From assembly GCA_045533905.1 (NCBI GenBank), contig JAZSIR010000003.1:64001-128000 (forward strand): a stretch of DNA of 64,000 bases, read 5' to 3'. This stretch comes from Clostridia bacterium. Its GTDB lineage: Bacteria; Bacillota; Clostridia; UMGS1883; UMGS1540. The notes under the pieces are model-generated. The model saw only the letters and a program-made list of their open reading frames with translations, was not told the origin of the DNA and did not search any database. Numbering within the stretch: position 1 is the stretch's first letter; each line of letters begins with the position of its first letter. The translations under genes and the position numbers were made by a program. Of the stretch, positions 41,182-47,827 are shown piece after piece.

Positions 41182-42246
41182 ATGAATACCAGCATAAAAA
41201 ACGGGATGCCTATGTATGACGTAAACGGGAATCGCATGCACGTCCAATTTCCGCATATCATTTTTCATAATGATAAGTATTATCTGTATGGAAGCAACAA
41301 GGAATTTTCGGATGGCAAAAGCGGCATCTGGCATTGGGGCATACGGATGTATGTGTCAGAGGATTTATATAATTGGGAGGATGTAGGGAGTATCCTTCCG
41401 CCGGACGAGGCGGATACTGAGTCCCCGTTATATCCTCGGGCAACGATGGATGCACCGTGTATCGTTTATAATGCAAAAACCGATACATGGGTGTGCTGGG
41501 TGATTCATATGAGCAAGCAAATGGCGTTTACCTTTGTGTCGGATTCCTTGTTTGGTCCTTACAAAAGAACCGGCGAAGGATTTTTCCCTTGTGGCTTTCA
41601 AATCGGAGATTATGATTTGGCCACAACGGAGGACGGCAAAGGATATATCTATTTCAATCATCCGCACAAGGAAATTGTTTGCGCGGAGCTTACGCCTGAT
41701 TTCACCTCGGTCACCGGAAAATATACTACGATGTTAGAACATCCGGAAAGTGTTCCGTTTTCGAGAGAAGCGCCTGCGTATTTCTGCAGAGAAGGGAAAC
41801 ACTATCTGATCACCTCCGGCACCACGTCCTTTTTCCCGAATCCCTCGGAAATTGCGGCCGGAGAGCGCCACATGGGCGAATATGTGACGCTTGGAAATCC
41901 GCACGTCGGCGATGAAACGAACACTTCTTTCCATACGCAAATCCGCAGTGTTTTCAAACACCCCAAAAAGAAGGACTTGTACATCGCGTTGGCAGACAGG
42001 TGGCTGCCGGAGTATATGCATGTTACGTACGAAAGTGCCAGAGATTGGCATTATATTTGGTACCACGACAAAACACCGGAAAATCTGGAACTCGTCCGGA
42101 AACAGGGTGAAGAGTATAATATTATTCAAGGCTGTATGCAGCAGGATATTACGCGCGCCGAGTGTGTCTTCTTGCCGATAGTGTTTGATGAAGAAATGCC
42201 GAAGATTTACTGGCGCGATGAATGGAAAATAGAAGCATTTGCGTAA
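41182..42246 (+). CDS. GH43 glycoside hydrolase (GH43_24-like)
   Basis: YYLYG, SEDLYNW, REAPA, TSGT..FPNP, FHTQ, YIALADRW. Confidence 0.8.
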   Translation: MNTSIKNGMPMYDVNGNRMHVQFPHIIFHNDKYYLYGSNKEFSDGKSGIWHWGIRMYVSEDLYNWEDVGSILPPDEADTESPLYPRATMDAPCIVYNAKTDTWVCWVIHMSKQMAFTFVSDSLFGPYKRTGEGFFPCGFQIGDYDLATTEDGKGYIYFNHPHKEIVCAELTPDFTSVTGKYTTMLEHPESVPFSREAPAYFCREGKHYLITSGTTSFFPNPSEIAAGERHMGEYVTLGNPHVGDETNTSFHTQIRSVFKHPKKKDLYIALADRWLPEYMHVTYESARDWHYIWYHDKTPENLELVRKQGEEYNIIQGCMQQDITRAECVFLPIVFDEEMPKIYWRDEWKIEAFA

Positions 42247-42311: not shown

Positions 42312-42347
42312 AAAAAGGGATGTAAAACTTGTTTTTACATCCCTTTT
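42312..42347. terminator. Terminator-like palindrome related to 22137-22175
   Basis: AAAAGGGATGTAAAA-CTTGT-TTTTACATCCCTTTT. Confidence 0.7.
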
Positions 42348-42390
42348 GTGGTATACTGAGAAAAACCGTTATTATAAAGGAGATATTCAA

Positions 42391-43638
42391 ATGGCGCTGC
42401 ATATTTTGGAAGAGGCAAACCGCTGCCTCTTATGCAAAAATCCATCCTGCCAAAAGGGTTGCCCGATTGCTACGCCCATTCCGGAAGTCATCGGGCTTTT
42501 AAGAAAGAATCGTCTGGATGAAGCGGGCCAGCTTTTGTTTGAAAACAATCCGCTGACTACGGTATGCAGTCTCGTTTGTGACCATAAAAAGCAGTGCGAA
42601 GGGCATTGCGTACTGAACAAAACCGGCTCTCCGGTGCACTTTTCGGGGATTGAAGGGTATATCTCGGGCGCGTATGCACCGAAAATGACGACGGGGCCGG
42701 CAAAATCCAACGGGCGGAGAGTGGCGATTGTGGGCTCGGGACCGGCAGGTCTCACCATTGCCATCATTCTCGCACGCTACGGGTATCAGGTCACCATTTT
42801 TGAAGGCAAAGATAAAATCGGCGGCGTGTTACGGTACGGCATCCCCGAGTTTCGGCTTCCGAAAAGCGTGCTGGATGATCTTCAGTACCGCCACATAGAG
42901 CTCAAGGGCATTAAAATCCGCCCGAATATCCGTATCGGCGATGCAATCAGTATTGAAGATTTGTTCCGCGATGGGTATAAGGCCATTTTTATCGGCACAG
43001 GCGTATGGCGTCCAAGAACCCTGCATATTAAGGGCGAAACCTTTGGGAATGTGCATTTTGCAATCAATTATTTAAATAACCCGAGCGTGTACAAGCTTGG
43101 GAAACGTGTTACGATTATAGGCGCCGGCAATGCCGCAATGGATGTGGCCCGCACGGCCGTTCGAAATGGTAGCAGAGAGGTTACGTGCTTTTCTCTTGAC
43201 AAAACGGTCGCGGCGAGCGAGTATGAATTTGCGTATGCAAAGCTGGAGGGCGTACATTTCAGATATAATCTAAAGCCTGTAGAGATTCTCGATGATGGTG
43301 TGATTTTTAGAGAGGTCATCGAAAAAGAGGATGGCACACTGGAAGAAATAGAGGGAAGCGATAAAGTGTACCCTTCTGATTCTGTCATTATTGCCATTAG
43401 CCAAGGCCCGCGAAACGTCATCGTGTCCACAACCACGGGCCTTAAAGTGAGTCAAAACGGTCTTTTGGAGGCCGACGAATTCGGCAATACAAGCCGCCCG
43501 GGAATCTTCGGTTCGGGCGACGTGGTAAACGGTTCGCGCACCGTTGTGGAAGCGGTTGCACATAGTAAAATCGTAGCTGAAACGATGCATCGGTATCTGC
43601 AAGGGCTAAAAAATGATTTTTACAAGCTCGATATTTAG
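42391..43638 (+). CDS. GltD/NfnB-like NAD(P)-dependent Fe-S flavoprotein (stand-alone)
   Basis: EANRCLLC..CQKGCP, VCSLVC..QCEGHC, GSGPAG, YGIPEFRLPK, GAGNAAMD. Confidence 0.85.
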   Translation: MALHILEEANRCLLCKNPSCQKGCPIATPIPEVIGLLRKNRLDEAGQLLFENNPLTTVCSLVCDHKKQCEGHCVLNKTGSPVHFSGIEGYISGAYAPKMTTGPAKSNGRRVAIVGSGPAGLTIAIILARYGYQVTIFEGKDKIGGVLRYGIPEFRLPKSVLDDLQYRHIELKGIKIRPNIRIGDAISIEDLFRDGYKAIFIGTGVWRPRTLHIKGETFGNVHFAINYLNNPSVYKLGKRVTIIGAGNAAMDVARTAVRNGSREVTCFSLDKTVAASEYEFAYAKLEGVHFRYNLKPVEILDDGVIFREVIEKEDGTLEEIEGSDKVYPSDSVIIAISQGPRNVIVSTTTGLKVSQNGLLEADEFGNTSRPGIFGSGDVVNGSRTVVEAVAHSKIVAETMHRYLQGLKNDFYKLDI

Positions 43639-43696
43639 TCCTAACTTGATGCGAGCATAAAATAAACTTAATTAGAAAAATAAAAGGAGAATTGAA

Positions 43697-45379
43697 ATGA
43701 AAAAAAGAATTTACATTGACTTAATGGAACGTGTAATGTCTGCATATACCGATGAGCGTATTGCGAAATACACCGAAAACGTAATAAAAAACGGACTTGA
43801 GGAACATGGGTACCCTCGACTTACAGCGAATCTTGGGATTTTAATTGCTCACGGCAGGAAAACAAAGTATAAAGACGAGTTTCGCAAAATGATGGATTTG
43901 TGTTGCAGAGAAATCCCCACTGCTTTGGGCAGAAATGGGGGGAGAGTGGGTAATGATTTTTCTGTAAAAGAGCTTGTCTTTTGCTTACTTGAAATTGAAA
44001 AAGCAGGTATTTTTGATAAATCAGTTACAGATGGCTGGCGAAATGAATTAGCAAAAATAAATCCATACGAAACATATTCTGTTATTGCATCTGTGCCACC
44101 TGAACGCATCAATAACTGGGCGGCTTTTGGAGCTGCCAGCGAACAGGTGAGAAAATATGCCGGCATAGGTGACGAAAGTTCGTTTATTGAAAATCAGATT
44201 AAATCTCAGTTTTTCTCATTTGATGAAAATGGAATGTACCGCGATCCTAATGAACCGATGGTATACGATACTGTAACCCGTTTGCAACTAGCGTTAACGC
44301 TTTATTTTGGATTTGATGGCGAGAGCAAAGAAAAACTTGAAAAAGAATTGCTCAAATCTGCGGATATGACGCTTAATATGCAGTCAGTGACAGGAGAAAT
44401 TCCTTTTGGTGGTCGCAGTGCTCAGTTTTTACATAATGAGGCGCATTTTGCGGCGCTTTGTGAATTCTATGCAGACCTTTTTGGGAAATGTGGCGATTTA
44501 AATAAAGCAGGTCAGTTTAAAAGTGCGGCAAGAATTGCACTTGAAAGTATTACTTACTGGCTAAAAATGAAGAAAATTTATCATGTGAAAAATTACTACG
44601 ATAATGACAGTATGTATGGATGTGAAGAATATTCATATTTTGATAAATATATGGTAACTGCAAGTTCTATGCTTTATGCAGGATATATTATGGCAGATGA
44701 CAATGTTGATGAAGTGGATTGCCCGGCAATATCTGAAAACGCCATCTGTGAAACGAGTGAATATTTTCACAAGGTGATGTGCAGATATAAGGATTATTTC
44801 GTTGAGTTTGAAACAATGGCAGACCATCATTATGATGCGAGTGGAATTGGCAGAATACATAAAAGGGGTGTACCTTCGGCAATTTGCCTGTCAGTACCAT
44901 TCAGTGAACACCCCAACTATGAGATTGATATAGAAAATCCGTCACATTTTTCTGTTTGTACCGGGATAAAAACGGGTGACGGATATGCTTATACTTTTGA
45001 TGCGTCGACCAAGTATAAGCTTGTTGAAAAGATGGTTAACGATGAATGTGTTCAGGTGAAATTTGAATGTGAAACACGTGACGGAGCCAAGGTTTTTCAG
45101 ACATGTATTCTTTCAGATGACGGTGTTGAAGTTCGTGCATCAGGAAACGGCGATGTGAGAATTTTGTTTGTGTTATTTGATTATGATGGAGAACAAGAAA
45201 CAAAAATTTCTGTGTCTGAAAAAAGTGCCATTGTGTCATATAAAGGAAGCCGATGTGTTTATTCTACAAATGGCGTTATAACAGATATGAATCGGATGTA
45301 CGCAAATCGAAATGGACACTACAGAGCTATGGCAACGAATGGTAAAGATAGTGTTTCTTTGAAAATAGAGATGTTTTAA
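43697..45379 (+). CDS. Hypothetical protein, possibly an alpha/alpha-toroid carbohydrate-active enzyme (cassette 1)
   Basis: AAGGAG RBS; NNW, G.YRDP..P.VYD and GGRS motifs reminiscent of heparinase/DUF2264-like folds; AT-rich codon usage. Confidence 0.5.
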   Translation: MKKRIYIDLMERVMSAYTDERIAKYTENVIKNGLEEHGYPRLTANLGILIAHGRKTKYKDEFRKMMDLCCREIPTALGRNGGRVGNDFSVKELVFCLLEIEKAGIFDKSVTDGWRNELAKINPYETYSVIASVPPERINNWAAFGAASEQVRKYAGIGDESSFIENQIKSQFFSFDENGMYRDPNEPMVYDTVTRLQLALTLYFGFDGESKEKLEKELLKSADMTLNMQSVTGEIPFGGRSAQFLHNEAHFAALCEFYADLFGKCGDLNKAGQFKSAARIALESITYWLKMKKIYHVKNYYDNDSMYGCEEYSYFDKYMVTASSMLYAGYIMADDNVDEVDCPAISENAICETSEYFHKVMCRYKDYFVEFETMADHHYDASGIGRIHKRGVPSAICLSVPFSEHPNYEIDIENPSHFSVCTGIKTGDGYAYTFDASTKYKLVEKMVNDECVQVKFECETRDGAKVFQTCILSDDGVEVRASGNGDVRILFVLFDYDGEQETKISVSEKSAIVSYKGSRCVYSTNGVITDMNRMYANRNGHYRAMATNGKDSVSLKIEMF

Positions 45380-45431
45380 AATGGAGATATGTTTTTGACG
45401 TTGATTGGCACAGGCTATCACCAAAAGAAGT

Positions 45432-45456
45432 TGCATCTAAACCTTATGTGTCGCAA
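45432..45456 (+). repeat. 25-bp inter-gene direct repeat TGCATCTAAACCTTATGTGTCGCAA, copy 1
   Basis: Identical to 46178-46202. Confidence 0.9.
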
Positions 45457-45497
45457 TTAATAGATGTCGAATTTTGTTGTTAAAAGGAGATGAAATT

Positions 45498-46133
45498 GTG
45501 TTTTGTAATGAGATTGTAGAGGAAGTATTTGAATGTATGCCAGAATATGATGACGACAGCGTAAATTGGTTTTTTGACTGTTATCATGATATGGCACTGC
45601 ATTTAACAAAAGGGTACAGAATTATATTAAAAACCAAATCTTATTTCATTTGTATCGGATATGACGGAGTTAAGATTGTACCTAATACAGAGAATGTTGT
45701 ATTTGCCGGAGAGTATATGGAATCGTGCATACATATAATTGACGAAAATGAAGAGCCTTGGATTGATTATGAAAGCACATTGTTTGTCGGAGAGCAACTT
45801 GTTGATGTAAAAAAAGGAAATGGTTGTTATATATTAACCTTTAATGATTTTGAATTAAAAATAATGCCCCACGATAATCCAGACGAAATAGAAGGACTTT
45901 ATCAAGAAAGCCACTGGTCGTATAATTATGTTTATGGTTTAGATAGATTGTTAACAAGAAAATGTAATTGTGGAGGGACAGGAGAAGTTTTATTGGATTT
46001 CGTTTCTGATTATGTTATTAGATGCAATAAGTGCAAAAAATCAACTTATGCAGAAATGATGGTTGTAAATGCTATAGATAATTGGAACAGAGGGGAAAAC
46101 CCTTGCGATTTATCTGATATTGAAATCGAATGA
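45498..46133 (+). CDS. Hypothetical protein with C-terminal Lar-like zinc finger (cassette 2)
   Basis: GTG start after AAGGAG; KCNCGG...IRCNKC....AIDNWN. Confidence 0.6.
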   Translation: MFCNEIVEEVFECMPEYDDDSVNWFFDCYHDMALHLTKGYRIILKTKSYFICIGYDGVKIVPNTENVVFAGEYMESCIHIIDENEEPWIDYESTLFVGEQLVDVKKGNGCYILTFNDFELKIMPHDNPDEIEGLYQESHWSYNYVYGLDRLLTRKCNCGGTGEVLLDFVSDYVIRCNKCKKSTYAEMMVVNAIDNWNRGENPCDLSDIEIE

Positions 46134-46177
46134 CTCTTTATTCATGACTTGGTGCGTGCAACTCTTGAAGAAAGTTC

Positions 46178-46202
46178 TGCATCTAAACCTTATGTGTCGC
46201 AA
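46178..46202 (+). repeat. 25-bp inter-gene direct repeat, copy 2
   Basis: Identical to 45432-45456. Confidence 0.9.
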
Positions 46203-46265
46203 GTAGTTGGCGTATAAAGAATATTATTTTATAATTCATTTCATAAATTATTTGAGGATAAAAAA

Positions 46266-46973
46266 ATGTTAATTGATTTGCATGCACATACTGCAGGAAT
46301 AAGCAAGTGTTGCCGTTATACAGCTTCAAAAGTTTTAGAAAGCGTATATGAGGCAGGGATTGACGGGATAGTTCTTACGAATCATTATCAAAAAAGTTAT
46401 ATTGATAATGAAAAAATAAATAGTTTTATAGATAAATATATAGAAGAATTCTATTTTACACAAGCACTTGGCGAGCAATTAGGACTAAAAGTTTTTTGGG
46501 GAATTGAGGTTACGATGGAACTCTATCCTCATGTGCATATGTTGATTTATGGTGTTAATACGGACTTTCTTAAGAGTCATCCGTTAGTATTTGATTATAC
46601 TCAAAAGGATTTATATACCGCAGTTAAAGATAATAATGGAGTGCTTATACAGGCACATCCTTTTAGAAATGGTACAACCATTTTGGATGTGGACTTCTTA
46701 GATGGTGTTGAAATTAACTGTCATCCGCTATATAACAATTCGTATTCGCAGGAAATATTCAACATCGCAAATGAAAACAGGCTGGCTGTGACTTGTGGTG
46801 GAGATTTTCACGCGGATACTTACCGACCTAAGTGCGGAATGTACTTGCCTGACAACATCGTCAACAGTTGCGAGTTGGGTAAATATATTGAAAATGCCAA
46901 AAAAGTTAGTTTGTGTATGCATGAACCAAATGCAACTATGTGTCAAAAAATTGATTTTTATAGAGAATTATAA
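46266..46973 (+). CDS. PHP-domain metal-dependent phosphoesterase (cassette 3)
   Basis: IDLHAHT, LTNH, GIE, QAHPFR, GGDFH. Confidence 0.85.
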   Translation: MLIDLHAHTAGISKCCRYTASKVLESVYEAGIDGIVLTNHYQKSYIDNEKINSFIDKYIEEFYFTQALGEQLGLKVFWGIEVTMELYPHVHMLIYGVNTDFLKSHPLVFDYTQKDLYTAVKDNNGVLIQAHPFRNGTTILDVDFLDGVEINCHPLYNNSYSQEIFNIANENRLAVTCGGDFHADTYRPKCGMYLPDNIVNSCELGKYIENAKKVSLCMHEPNATMCQKIDFYREL

Positions 46974-46975
46974 TA

Positions 46976-47015
46976 TGCATCTAAACCGTCTGTCCTATAT
47001 ATGCGGTTGATGCGA
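46976..47015 (+). repeat. Partial repeat copy 3 (TGCATCTAAACC) paired with GGTTGATGC; right border of the AT-rich insert
   Basis: 12-bp identity to the 25-mer; TTGATGCGA at 47007-47015 also occurs at the left border 43646-43654. Confidence 0.7.
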
Positions 47016-47092
47016 AACTGCAGCGATATACATTTCTGACGGGCTTTGTGACATACCCGTTAGGATCAGAATGAAAAGGAAGAGGAGGATTT

Positions 47093-47827
47093 ATGGAAGA
47101 AAGAACAGAGCGCATCCTGTGGATAGACGAGCTTCGCGGCTTTGCCATCTGCGTGATGATTCTCCATCATATTGCTTTCAATAGTATTTATTTTCTGGAG
47201 CTTCCGATAGCGTGGCTTTCCTCCTTTCTGGAAAGTGGCGCCTTCCGCGCGCTGCACCTTCTTTTTCTCGCTGTCTTTTTGGGGCTTTCGGGCGTTTGCT
47301 CACACTTTTCGTGCCACCCCTACAAACGGGCGGGGCGCGTATTTCTTGCAGCCCTCGCCGTGACGGCGGTCACCTGTATCGCCTATCCCGAGGAGGCTAT
47401 ATGGTTCGGCATTTTGCATCTGCTCGCGTTTTCGATGCTTCTCGCCGCGGCGCTTGGAAAATACGGGAAGAAGGTGTCGCCCGTATGGGGCATTACGCTC
47501 TCGCTCCTTCTTTTTATGCTGACCTATCGCGTGCCGGACGGCTTTCTTCTTTCGTTTCCGCTCCCGGCGGCGCTTTACCAAAGCGAATTTCTGGTGCCGC
47601 TCGGATTTGCACCCGTGTCTTTCGCGAGCCTTGATTATGACCCCATTCTGCCGTACTTTTTTCTTTTTGCGGCAGGCTTTTTCCTCGGCAACCTTCGCCT
47701 GCCCAAAGGGGGCGGCCGTTTCTCATTCTTCGGATTTTGCGGGCGGCACAGCCTTTTGGTGTATCTTTTGCACCAGCCGGTTGTTTTCGGTTTGTTTTTT
47801 CTGCTTACAAAAATCTTTGTGAGGTGA
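47093..47827 (+). CDS. DUF1624 / HGSNAT-like membrane acyltransferase
   Basis: RILWIDELRG, IWFGILH, SLDY.PILP, GRHSLLVYLLHQP. Confidence 0.85.
   Translation: MEERTERILWIDELRGFAICVMILHHIAFNSIYFLELPIAWLSSFLESGAFRALHLLFLAVFLGLSGVCSHFSCHPYKRAGRVFLAALAVTAVTCIAYPEEAIWFGILHLLAFSMLLAAALGKYGKKVSPVWGITLSLLLFMLTYRVPDGFLLSFPLPAALYQSEFLVPLGFAPVSFASLDYDPILPYFFLFAAGFFLGNLRLPKGGGRFSFFGFCGRHSLLVYLLHQPVVFGLFFLLTKIFVR

Follow-up and report, generated by a model that had tools for sequence, protein, structure and literature searches.

The three co-oriented, AT-rich genes between positions 43,697 and 46,973 of the DNA analysed here (the window: 64,000 nucleotides of a Clostridia bacterium, GenBank assembly GCA_045533905.1, contig JAZSIR010000003.1, positions 64,001 to 128,000) are, we are highly confident, swappable single-gene cassettes of a widespread system. 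The system is apparently undescribed and is spread across families of Clostridia; the searches described below found no enzyme for it. Each cassette consists of a ribosome site, an open reading frame (ORF) and a stop codon, with one motif (R) at its start and another (L) at its end. Neighbouring cassettes are joined either directly (short junction) or through a 40-bp palindrome (X; long junction) with a fixed asymmetric GCATCT core. An earlier note on this DNA, made from the letters alone, had described the array as one-gene units separated by a repeated 25-mer, which corresponds to the right arm of X; that description holds, since the same genes occur elsewhere with other neighbours and each cassette has one site.

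Mobility of the cassettes and the empty site

The 560-aa gene of cassette 1 is found with its ends, 98% identical over 1855 bases, in a genome of another family (G043), where its neighbours are different. Contigs of cassette 1 came from four metagenome runs of four studies; the match to the window begins at 43660 in three runs and ends at 45455-45457 in three of the four, and in two runs of one study (X1 and X11) the 560-aa gene is preceded by the palindrome instead of the L motif. For cassette 2 there was no coverage in run X1, which proves nothing. Its 219-aa gene is 85% identical in another context (G001, contig C56), behind a junction without X and with the same cassette start, and the PHP gene of cassette 3 has a 64% homologue in G044, likewise behind a short junction without X. 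The three genes thus lie separately elsewhere and the repeat is widespread, contrary to the fixed block, or repeat confined to this locus, by which the earlier note would have judged its idea refuted. Among the sites compared, 140 pairs (31 groups) share only the upstream unit and 61 (18 groups) share only the downstream unit.

A comparison of the gltD interval across strains, as the earlier note had suggested, revealed an empty site in a congener. Contig C52 of that genome (G004) matches the window up to 42358 and then passes directly into the HGSNAT-like gene; its order is dapDH, a common terminator, a -10 box and the HGSNAT-like gene, without the GH43 gene, gltD or the three cassette genes. 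In G001, dapDH and the HGSNAT-like gene are also adjacent, with no gltD between them. The insert therefore runs from about 42359 to about 47075 and takes in gltD. The 9-bp repeat TTGATGCGA does lie at 43646-43654 and 47007-47015 as had been noted (it has 11 occurrences genome-wide), but its role as a bracket of the insert is not supported, because its right copy and the hairpin at 47036-47063 belong to a decayed ORF-less cassette and the insert begins about 1.3 kb further left.

The features of the locus are as follows:

42352..42358, + strand: host -10-like box, the final bases common to the empty site in the congener G004
42391..43638, + strand: gltD-like FAD/Fe-S oxidoreductase gene, within the insert; GC 0.50, host-like; ends in the L motif
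43631..43657, + strand: L motif in a short junction without palindrome (motif 2 of the earlier note)
43658..45456, + strand: cassette 1 including its 3′ end; 560-aa gene at 43697-45379
45390..45416, + strand: degenerate L motif of cassette 1; weak, at the expected distance from GCATCT
45416..45457, + strand: palindrome X, copy 1; left arm variable, GCATCT core at 45433-45438, right arm (the 25-mer) invariant
45462..45489, + strand: R motif and AGGAG ribosome site, the 5′ start of a cassette; TGTCGAA at 45465-45471; 16.6 bits
45498..46133, + strand: cassette 2, 211-219-aa gene; Pfam PF14354 in many relatives; 99 homologues
46134..46160, + strand: 3′ end (L motif) of cassette 2, where motif 2 has its second copy; profile score 3.7 bits, among the top 3e-5 of positions
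46162..46202, + strand: palindrome X, copy 2; GCATCT at 46179-46184
46266..46973, + strand: cassette 3, 235-aa PHP-family metallohydrolase; weak Pfam PHP match
46977..47001, + strand: variant right half of X, T2 (third site); no preceding L motif
47002..47066, + strand: decayed remnant of the 5′ part of a word-and-hairpin cassette without ORF; contains the right-hand 9-mer and the second hairpin
47093..47827, + strand: host HGSNAT_cat-family gene (Pfam), right flank; directly after dapDH in G004 and G001

The 25-mer is identical at 45432-45456 and 46178-46202, its first 12 bases return at 46976-46987, and motif 2 lies at 43642-43657 and 46145-46160, all as first reported. Motif 2 had been taken for a separate site; it is the 3′ end of cassettes, namely the L motif. 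On a profile built from other genomes the L motif at 43631-43657 scores 24.5 bits (top 1.3e-6 of genome positions) and the degenerate one of cassette 1 scores -6.1 bits (top 8e-4). The three ORFs are indeed AT-richer than their flanks, with a GC content of 0.38, 0.32 and 0.34 for the 560-, 219- and 235-aa ORFs against 0.50 for gltD, 0.53 for the right-hand gene and 0.50 for the window. The gltD-like gene is likely an older cassette. The right-hand gene, called DUF1624 in the earlier note, matches HGSNAT_cat in Pfam. Among the three ORFs Pfam names only the third, weakly; PF14354, seen in relatives of the second, we take to be a Lar-like zinc ribbon.

The T2 variant also occurs on contig C18 and in other genomes, and one independent metagenome contig spans the T2 junction of the window with 1 difference. 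Behind it, the stretch 47002-47066 aligns locally with the sequence behind X in locus L223 with a score of 62 (best of 30 shuffles, 42), and this ORF-less cassette is commonly found behind X. The stretch holding the two hairpins pointed out at the right-hand end shows only modest folding (z -1.9 and -2.5), and the hairpin at 47036-47063 is part of the decayed cassette; the other three sites of the window fold no better than shuffles (z -1.0 to +1.2).

Structure of the junctions

In an alignment of 257 sites, positions +1 to +25 (counted from the G of GCATCT) are almost invariant except for +16 to +18, and the left side follows the loose pattern AAAAAGGTT. The best of 42 symmetry axes tried is the centre of GCATCT, which gives AAGGTTT / GCATCT / AAACCTT with a degenerate left arm. 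Further left of the core lies the L motif, and to its right follow the R motif, two TGTCGAA words and AGGAG; L and R are imperfect inverted copies of TGTC(G/A)A. Right halves of X come in two variants, T1 (64 sites) and T2. Among 396 L-like matches, the core comes next in 193 and R comes next, directly, in 72; the other 131 have neither behind them, and many of these are chance matches. The modal length is 97 bases for long junctions (39 of 73) and 57 for short ones (36 of 60), which makes X 40 bases long; X is also found at array ends and as 40-base tandem pairs.

The motifs are placed with respect to the genes. Of 252 L motifs, 134 begin between -6 and +10 relative to a stop codon, including 82 at 0 or +1, and R ends 4-20 bases before the start codon in 116 of 229. 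Inserts between sites are whole genes with a median length of 562 bases, and adjacent ORFs are mostly co-oriented (233/252 downstream, 195/216 upstream). The arrays are also polar: in 35 arrays with at least two junctions and clear flanks, the first junction is without X in 26, and the last one has X or a variant in 30 (p = 7e-7 for the polarity).

Junctions do not fold as attC sites would (mean z -0.1 for 60 short and -0.6 to -0.7 for 60 long junctions, both strands), which agrees with the earlier label of the sites as non-attC and makes a double-stranded site likelier than an attC hairpin. Rfam gave no match at the gathering score in the window stretch (three weak matches lie below it) and, in seven array loci, only a riboswitch and a tRNA, with no match to Gut-1. 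At T1 sites (e.g. L118:2250), T1 and R together can be read by eye as a putative bottom-strand sigma-70-type promoter (TTGACA-like, 18 bases, TATAAT), which would point back into the upstream cassette.

Where exchange takes place

The pairs of sites that share one neighbour locate the breakpoints, with the proviso that site pairs are not independent and many involve ORF-less cassettes. When only the upstream unit is shared, identity continues up to GCATCT (0.5-0.8 against 0.3-0.7 by chance at -30 to -2) and is at chance level beyond +25; when only the downstream unit is shared, identity begins at +26 (0.72 against 0.39 by chance). Bases to the left of GCATCT thus go with the upstream gene, and bases to the right of the 25-mer, R included, go with the downstream gene. 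For short junctions, the breakpoint is immediately behind the L motif. Positions +16 to +18 have two main alleles, found in 156 and 122 of 335 sites, and two sites of one locus carry the same allele in 43 of 133 pairs, where chance would give 0.38.

Two explanations of details of the junction were tried and rejected. A link of the TG/CC alleles to hairpin pairing was dropped, as the left arm does not co-vary with them (the best of 84 positions has p 0.002 and is not among the paired ones). A nick inside the L motif, which recalls rolling-circle origins, was rejected because bases to the right of that point still follow the upstream gene.

Spread of the sites

The search pattern for the 25-mer (two alleles, up to two mismatches, reversed pattern as control) matches 17 of 44 genomes of the order and 47 of 401 genomes of the class Clostridia, about one in nine, and the reversed pattern matches none in either set. 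The repeat is not a product of chance, and its wide occurrence in Clostridia supports the earlier note on this point. A broader collection holds at least 136 stretches with the site, all of them Clostridia metagenome-assembled genomes among the titles shown, and among the matches listed those naming a source are nearly all from the ruminant gut. A metagenome scan for the site gave 57 rows. X is contained in 295 of 517 loci (these overlap in part; distinct contexts number 349), and in none of the 295 does it occur in both orientations. The present genome has at least five arrays, with 12 L matches of at least 14 bits against 2 in the reversed genome, and three further copies of the 25-mer on contig C11 (one exact, two with 2 mismatches). 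The exact short junction occurs in 15 of the 401 class genomes, 12 of them X carriers.

Plasmids gave no match for X or for Z, a companion element described below, and phages none for Z. Viral contigs gave one match for X, none for T1, the short junction or the Z end, and 11 and 7 matches for short cores, all unrelated. A 14-base end core, sought across the phylum, was found in 16 of 331 genomes, near control level. The only viral contig with the site (L047:1-1300) has it at its very start, followed by an AT-neutral 376-aa gene and a terminase region.

Z is an ORF-less unit of 160-390 bases. Its two ends carry the L core in the form of inverted repeats of 14 bases, the tips of which co-vary (examples at L347:5994-6257, on G000:C11 at about 126 kb, and in L335 and L130). 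It contains internal hairpin modules and a promoter-like stretch and always has the orientation of the cassettes; Rfam returned only one sub-threshold match for 12 Z loci. The left end of Z is present in 30 of 251 genomes; 21 of these are among the 32 X carriers, and 9 are among the 219 genomes without X. At two hybrid loci the first ~45 bases of Z are joined to the right arm of X just left of GCATCT, with dissimilar cores.

Search for the enzyme

The genomes available are metagenome bins, often without mobile elements. The earlier note's remark that no enzyme lies in cis is supported. Tyrosine, serine, Y1, reverse transcriptase, IS6, IS1595 and IS256 enzymes were sought in carriers and none was linked to the sites. 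IS6 was present in 1 of 5 carriers, IS1595 in 6 of 40 and IS256 in 5 of 40, and metagenome assemblies often drop insertion sequence (IS) elements. Around 30 tyrosine and 30 resolvase loci from X-rich genomes there was one lone L-like match.

A 281-aa Xer-like family, present in 48 of 80 genomes and the only recombinase family common to six carriers, was considered and rejected as a separate promoter invertase: it has its own inverted sites, and its presence does not track X (28 of 40 against 20 of 40, p 0.11). Its own site stands behind the gene in 11 of 11 loci, with an inverted copy 240-290 bases further on in 10. At L005:2158-3260 (G000:C11), for instance, the gene is followed by two inverted CACATAA-N6-TTATGTG sites ~230 bases apart, and the layout looks like a widespread promoter-inversion switch.

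Proposed mechanism and alternatives

We tentatively favour, at a likelihood somewhat short of even, a site-specific recombinase that acts in trans, probably of the tyrosine type, on double-stranded junction sites. Encoded elsewhere, such an enzyme would cut out cassettes and join them in a polar array; the GGTTT/AAACC arms around GCATCT would form the core site and the repeated TGTCRA words may be accessory binding sites. Cassettes could then pass between species as circles or array pieces, and array pieces could settle between host genes and be read from host promoters. In favour of this reading are the strict orientation, the asymmetric core of 6 bases with an inverted arm on either side, and the words that recur in the flanks. 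An asymmetric core, inverted arms and accessory sites are hallmarks of tyrosine recombinases, and the inverted arms around an asymmetric spacer of 6-8 bases known from core sites of the Xer, Cre and Tn916 type are found here. Of the two parts of the earlier suggestion of a trans-acting recombinase or HUH enzyme, the trans-acting enzyme remains the best reading; the HUH part found no support.

Several results weigh against the tyrosine reading. At +16 to +18 the alleles agree in 60 of 140 upstream pairs and 19 of 61 downstream pairs, with 0.38 expected by chance, and even in pairs at least 95% alike they agree in only 8 of 25 (upstream) and 3 of 8 (downstream). Since the alleles follow neither neighbour, one fixed crossover cannot explain them, and this is the chief finding against a single-crossover model; together with the identity breakpoints they define two exchange zones or more, the first to the left of +16 and the second at about +24/+25. 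A tyrosine enzyme would be expected to cross over in a single zone inside the spacer; one zone of exchange is present, but the tyrosine reading does not account for the second, and it is this that keeps our estimate where it is. In addition, the L motif is sometimes swapped behind near-identical genes, the spacing between L and R varies, and outer island borders, such as the left border in the window, carry no site. The excised circles that the earlier note proposed to look for did not appear, no circle joint being found in the contigs of seven metagenome runs. The five tyrosine recombinases of this genome have no match among 1343 proteins around 198 loci (some flanks are short), 30 tyrosine integrase loci in five X-rich genomes have no junction, and 0 of 217 cargo representatives is a recombinase or transposase.

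No standard scheme of recombination accounts for a linker that is tied to neither neighbour. An enzyme of a new class would join genes trimmed to start and stop and add a fresh 25-base linker drawn from two master versions; taken jointly with a community-wide gene capture in ruminant gut Clostridia unrelated to integrons, and with Z as a promoter and docking platform, this reading is doubtful.

It is unlikely that no dedicated enzyme is involved and that the sites are selfish intergenic repeats, exchanged by host homologous recombination or single-strand annealing over look-alikes of 25-60 bases. Exchange at several points of the junction (stop codon, core, right edge and ribosome site), free assortment of the +16 to +18 alleles and the lack of a linked enzyme would all fit such a process. 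The alleles are not homogenised within arrays, however, and the strict polarity, the exact 40-base difference, the near-invariant right against the degenerate left arm and the placement of L on the stop codon suggest a protein ruler.

A further alternative, which we consider decidedly unlikely, treats L and R as the ends of non-autonomous passenger-gene transposons stacked by a DDE transposase that prefers its own ends, with the IS256 family as leading candidate. The terminal inverted repeats of Z, equal to the L core and with co-varying tips, speak for it, as do 16 of 17 bases shared between the left end of Z and the inside of the left inverted repeat of IS256-family elements (G043 and G045; L513:1370-1420 and L514). 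Circles of the IS256 type join their ends over a spacer of 6-10 bases (PMC3942029), and this too counts in its favour. Against it, none of 38 Z units has a target duplication of four or more bases, as compared with the 8-9 bp given for the IS256 family (PMC3942029), and the first five bases vary. The end match was spotted post hoc, and the IS256 end scores only -0.7 bits on the L profile, on which real L motifs reach 13 or more. The family is present in few carriers, as noted above, and no transposase lies between the ends in 97 L-type end pairs.

Movement of the cassettes by a serine recombinase or a HUH (Y1/Y2) enzyme appears very unlikely. Points in its favour are the symmetry of X, which is centred on AT, the large serine recombinases seen in 4 of the 198 loci, with a broken one behind X in a fifth, and the position of the arrays on the G-rich strand (48 of 52 loci). 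This strand bias follows that of the neighbouring genes (44 of 52), though, and the junctions do not fold. Of the 339 right arms compared, 334 are preceded by GCAT or GTAT and none directly by an L arm, so that attP x attB hybrids between long and short junction centres are lacking. Y1 transposases occur in 3 of 5 carriers, none with these ends, and in this genome only as a weak broken piece. The ends of IS607 need a terminal GG (PMC6188088), and GG is found in about half of the left arms of X.

An RNA route is highly improbable. In it a reverse transcriptase would copy a message and add the 25-base linker from one of two master templates, which would suit cassettes trimmed to ribosome site, ORF and stop codon and two main linker alleles tied to neither neighbour; yet only one of five carriers yielded a reverse transcriptase and this genome yielded none, the one beside a site is retron-like cargo, and Rfam found nothing at the sites or in Z. 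Finally, an operator or terminator of co-regulated genes, for which the dyad symmetry and the position upstream of ribosome sites might speak and which the earlier note had kept as a regulator binding site, is hardly credible, as the site marks the exact point at which neighbours change, the cargo is unrelated (385 adjacent proteins form 273 clusters), copies also stand at array ends and in tandem pairs, and terminator- and promoter-like matches at the sites are at chance level.

Comparison with known systems

The arrays resemble integrons and clusters of attC sites lacking an integrase (CALIN) in many respects: arrays in which the genes are co-oriented, AT-rich, mostly single and each followed by one site, a gene order and content that differ from genome to genome, arrays without a linked enzyme, and cargo with toxin-antitoxin pairs, a retron-like reverse transcriptase and resistance-type enzymes. 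Sites of the attC type vary in sequence, are recognised in folded, single-stranded form and have their cut in the last box (PMC2727003). The sites here, in contrast, are conserved in sequence, do not fold, are exchanged mid-site and come in two forms; crossover takes place in and at the edge of X, and R goes with the downstream gene, as would not follow from a cut in the last box. No integron integrase was found in this genome, and no tyrosine recombinase match around the 198 loci. The system thus works like an integron without an integrase and failed three integron tests (folding, last-box crossover and adjacent integrase). Firmicutes are described as having almost no integrons, for reasons unknown (PMC9024848, PMC4889954).

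Other systems share single traits. With MITEs (miniature inverted-repeat transposable elements) and mobile insertion cassettes (MICs) the units have in common short inverted repeats at the ends (14 bp in Z, imperfect in gene cassettes), a non-autonomous nature, passenger genes and mobility in trans. MICs of the IS231 type are mobile insertion cassettes of DDE elements. What sets the present units apart is the lack of target duplication, variable tips, strict head-to-tail stacking and the extra palindrome; by comparison, IS6 needs GG tips and 8-bp duplications (PMC7986276) and p-MULT makes duplications of 8-9 bp (PMC3942029).

Tandem units with att-like repeats, from which the recombinase may be missing, are also seen in the arrays of large serine integrases. 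These grow by tandem accretion as in SCCmec, with units between repeated att-like sites. Here there is no fixed chromosomal anchor gene, this genome alone has several arrays, and attL/attR hybrids are lacking. The near-invariant 25-base repeat with weak dyad symmetry and variable inserts recalls CRISPR arrays and casposons, except that the inserts are whole genes; copying of a resident repeat in the manner of CRISPR was rejected because repeats within an array are no more alike than chance. Intergenic repeats that promote gene exchange include the minimal mobile elements and dRS3 arrays of Neisseria and the pneumococcal BOX. They resemble the present sites as intergenic repeats at which content is swapped, possibly via host recombination, whereas the repeats here have set positions at start and stop codons, run with strict polarity and are common to many bacterial families.

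Full-text searches of the literature (supplements lay outside their scope) turned up no account of such sites. In many families of Clostridia the system serves the purpose that integrons serve, by means of different sites, and carries glycan-degrading, defence and resistance-type genes from one species to another, with identities of up to 98%. If the trans-recombinase reading is true, it would be an undescribed counterpart of integrons in gut Clostridia. Short, fixed sites allow a direct search for excision circles, for binding proteins and for the enzyme itself, and a recombinase for a site of 25-40 bases could be a possible tool for Clostridia.

Cargo

Of 220 cargo representatives of at least 90 aa, 217 were scanned, the other three being the window's own genes; some array neighbours are host genes. 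Matches include GDSL esterases, glycoside hydrolases, methyltransferases, a RelB/YafQ pair, WapI-like proteins, chloramphenicol acetyltransferase-family and beta-lactamase-family proteins and one reverse transcriptase. The latter (L087:10061-11041, minus strand) is a stand-alone retron-like enzyme that forms one cassette between two X sites, with ~290 non-coding bases upstream and a retron-like match below the cut-off. The commonest cargo cluster is DUF559 (13 members), and a DUF559 endonuclease gene at L001:10600-11100 (G000:C11) is flanked by its own GC-rich hairpins.

The 560-aa protein of cassette 1 has 1293 relatives without Pfam names, and sequence searches of the PDB with it found nothing. 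Its predicted model (pLDDT 95) has 9o3q as best structure match (E 3e-12, TM 0.55, 11% identity) and resembles glycosaminoglycan and alginate lyases in an alpha-toroid plus beta-sandwich fold, so on this model the family may be a new one of lyases. In G008, a relative at 50% stands among sugar-use genes.

Other observations at the locus

A motif GGCATCTAAAC-ATTCGG closes two AT-richer stretches in this genome (L003:6399 and L004:7366) and is also found at L253:1272, beside a tRNA-linked integrase in G197. The GH43 gene at window positions 41182-42246 is a second, separate insert: it is missing behind dapDH in both G004 and G001, and no L, R or X motif is found there. Between it and the cassette insert, at 42313-42347, lies a perfect 15-base inverted repeat, which is kept in G004, resembles one on contig C23 and is likely a two-way terminator.

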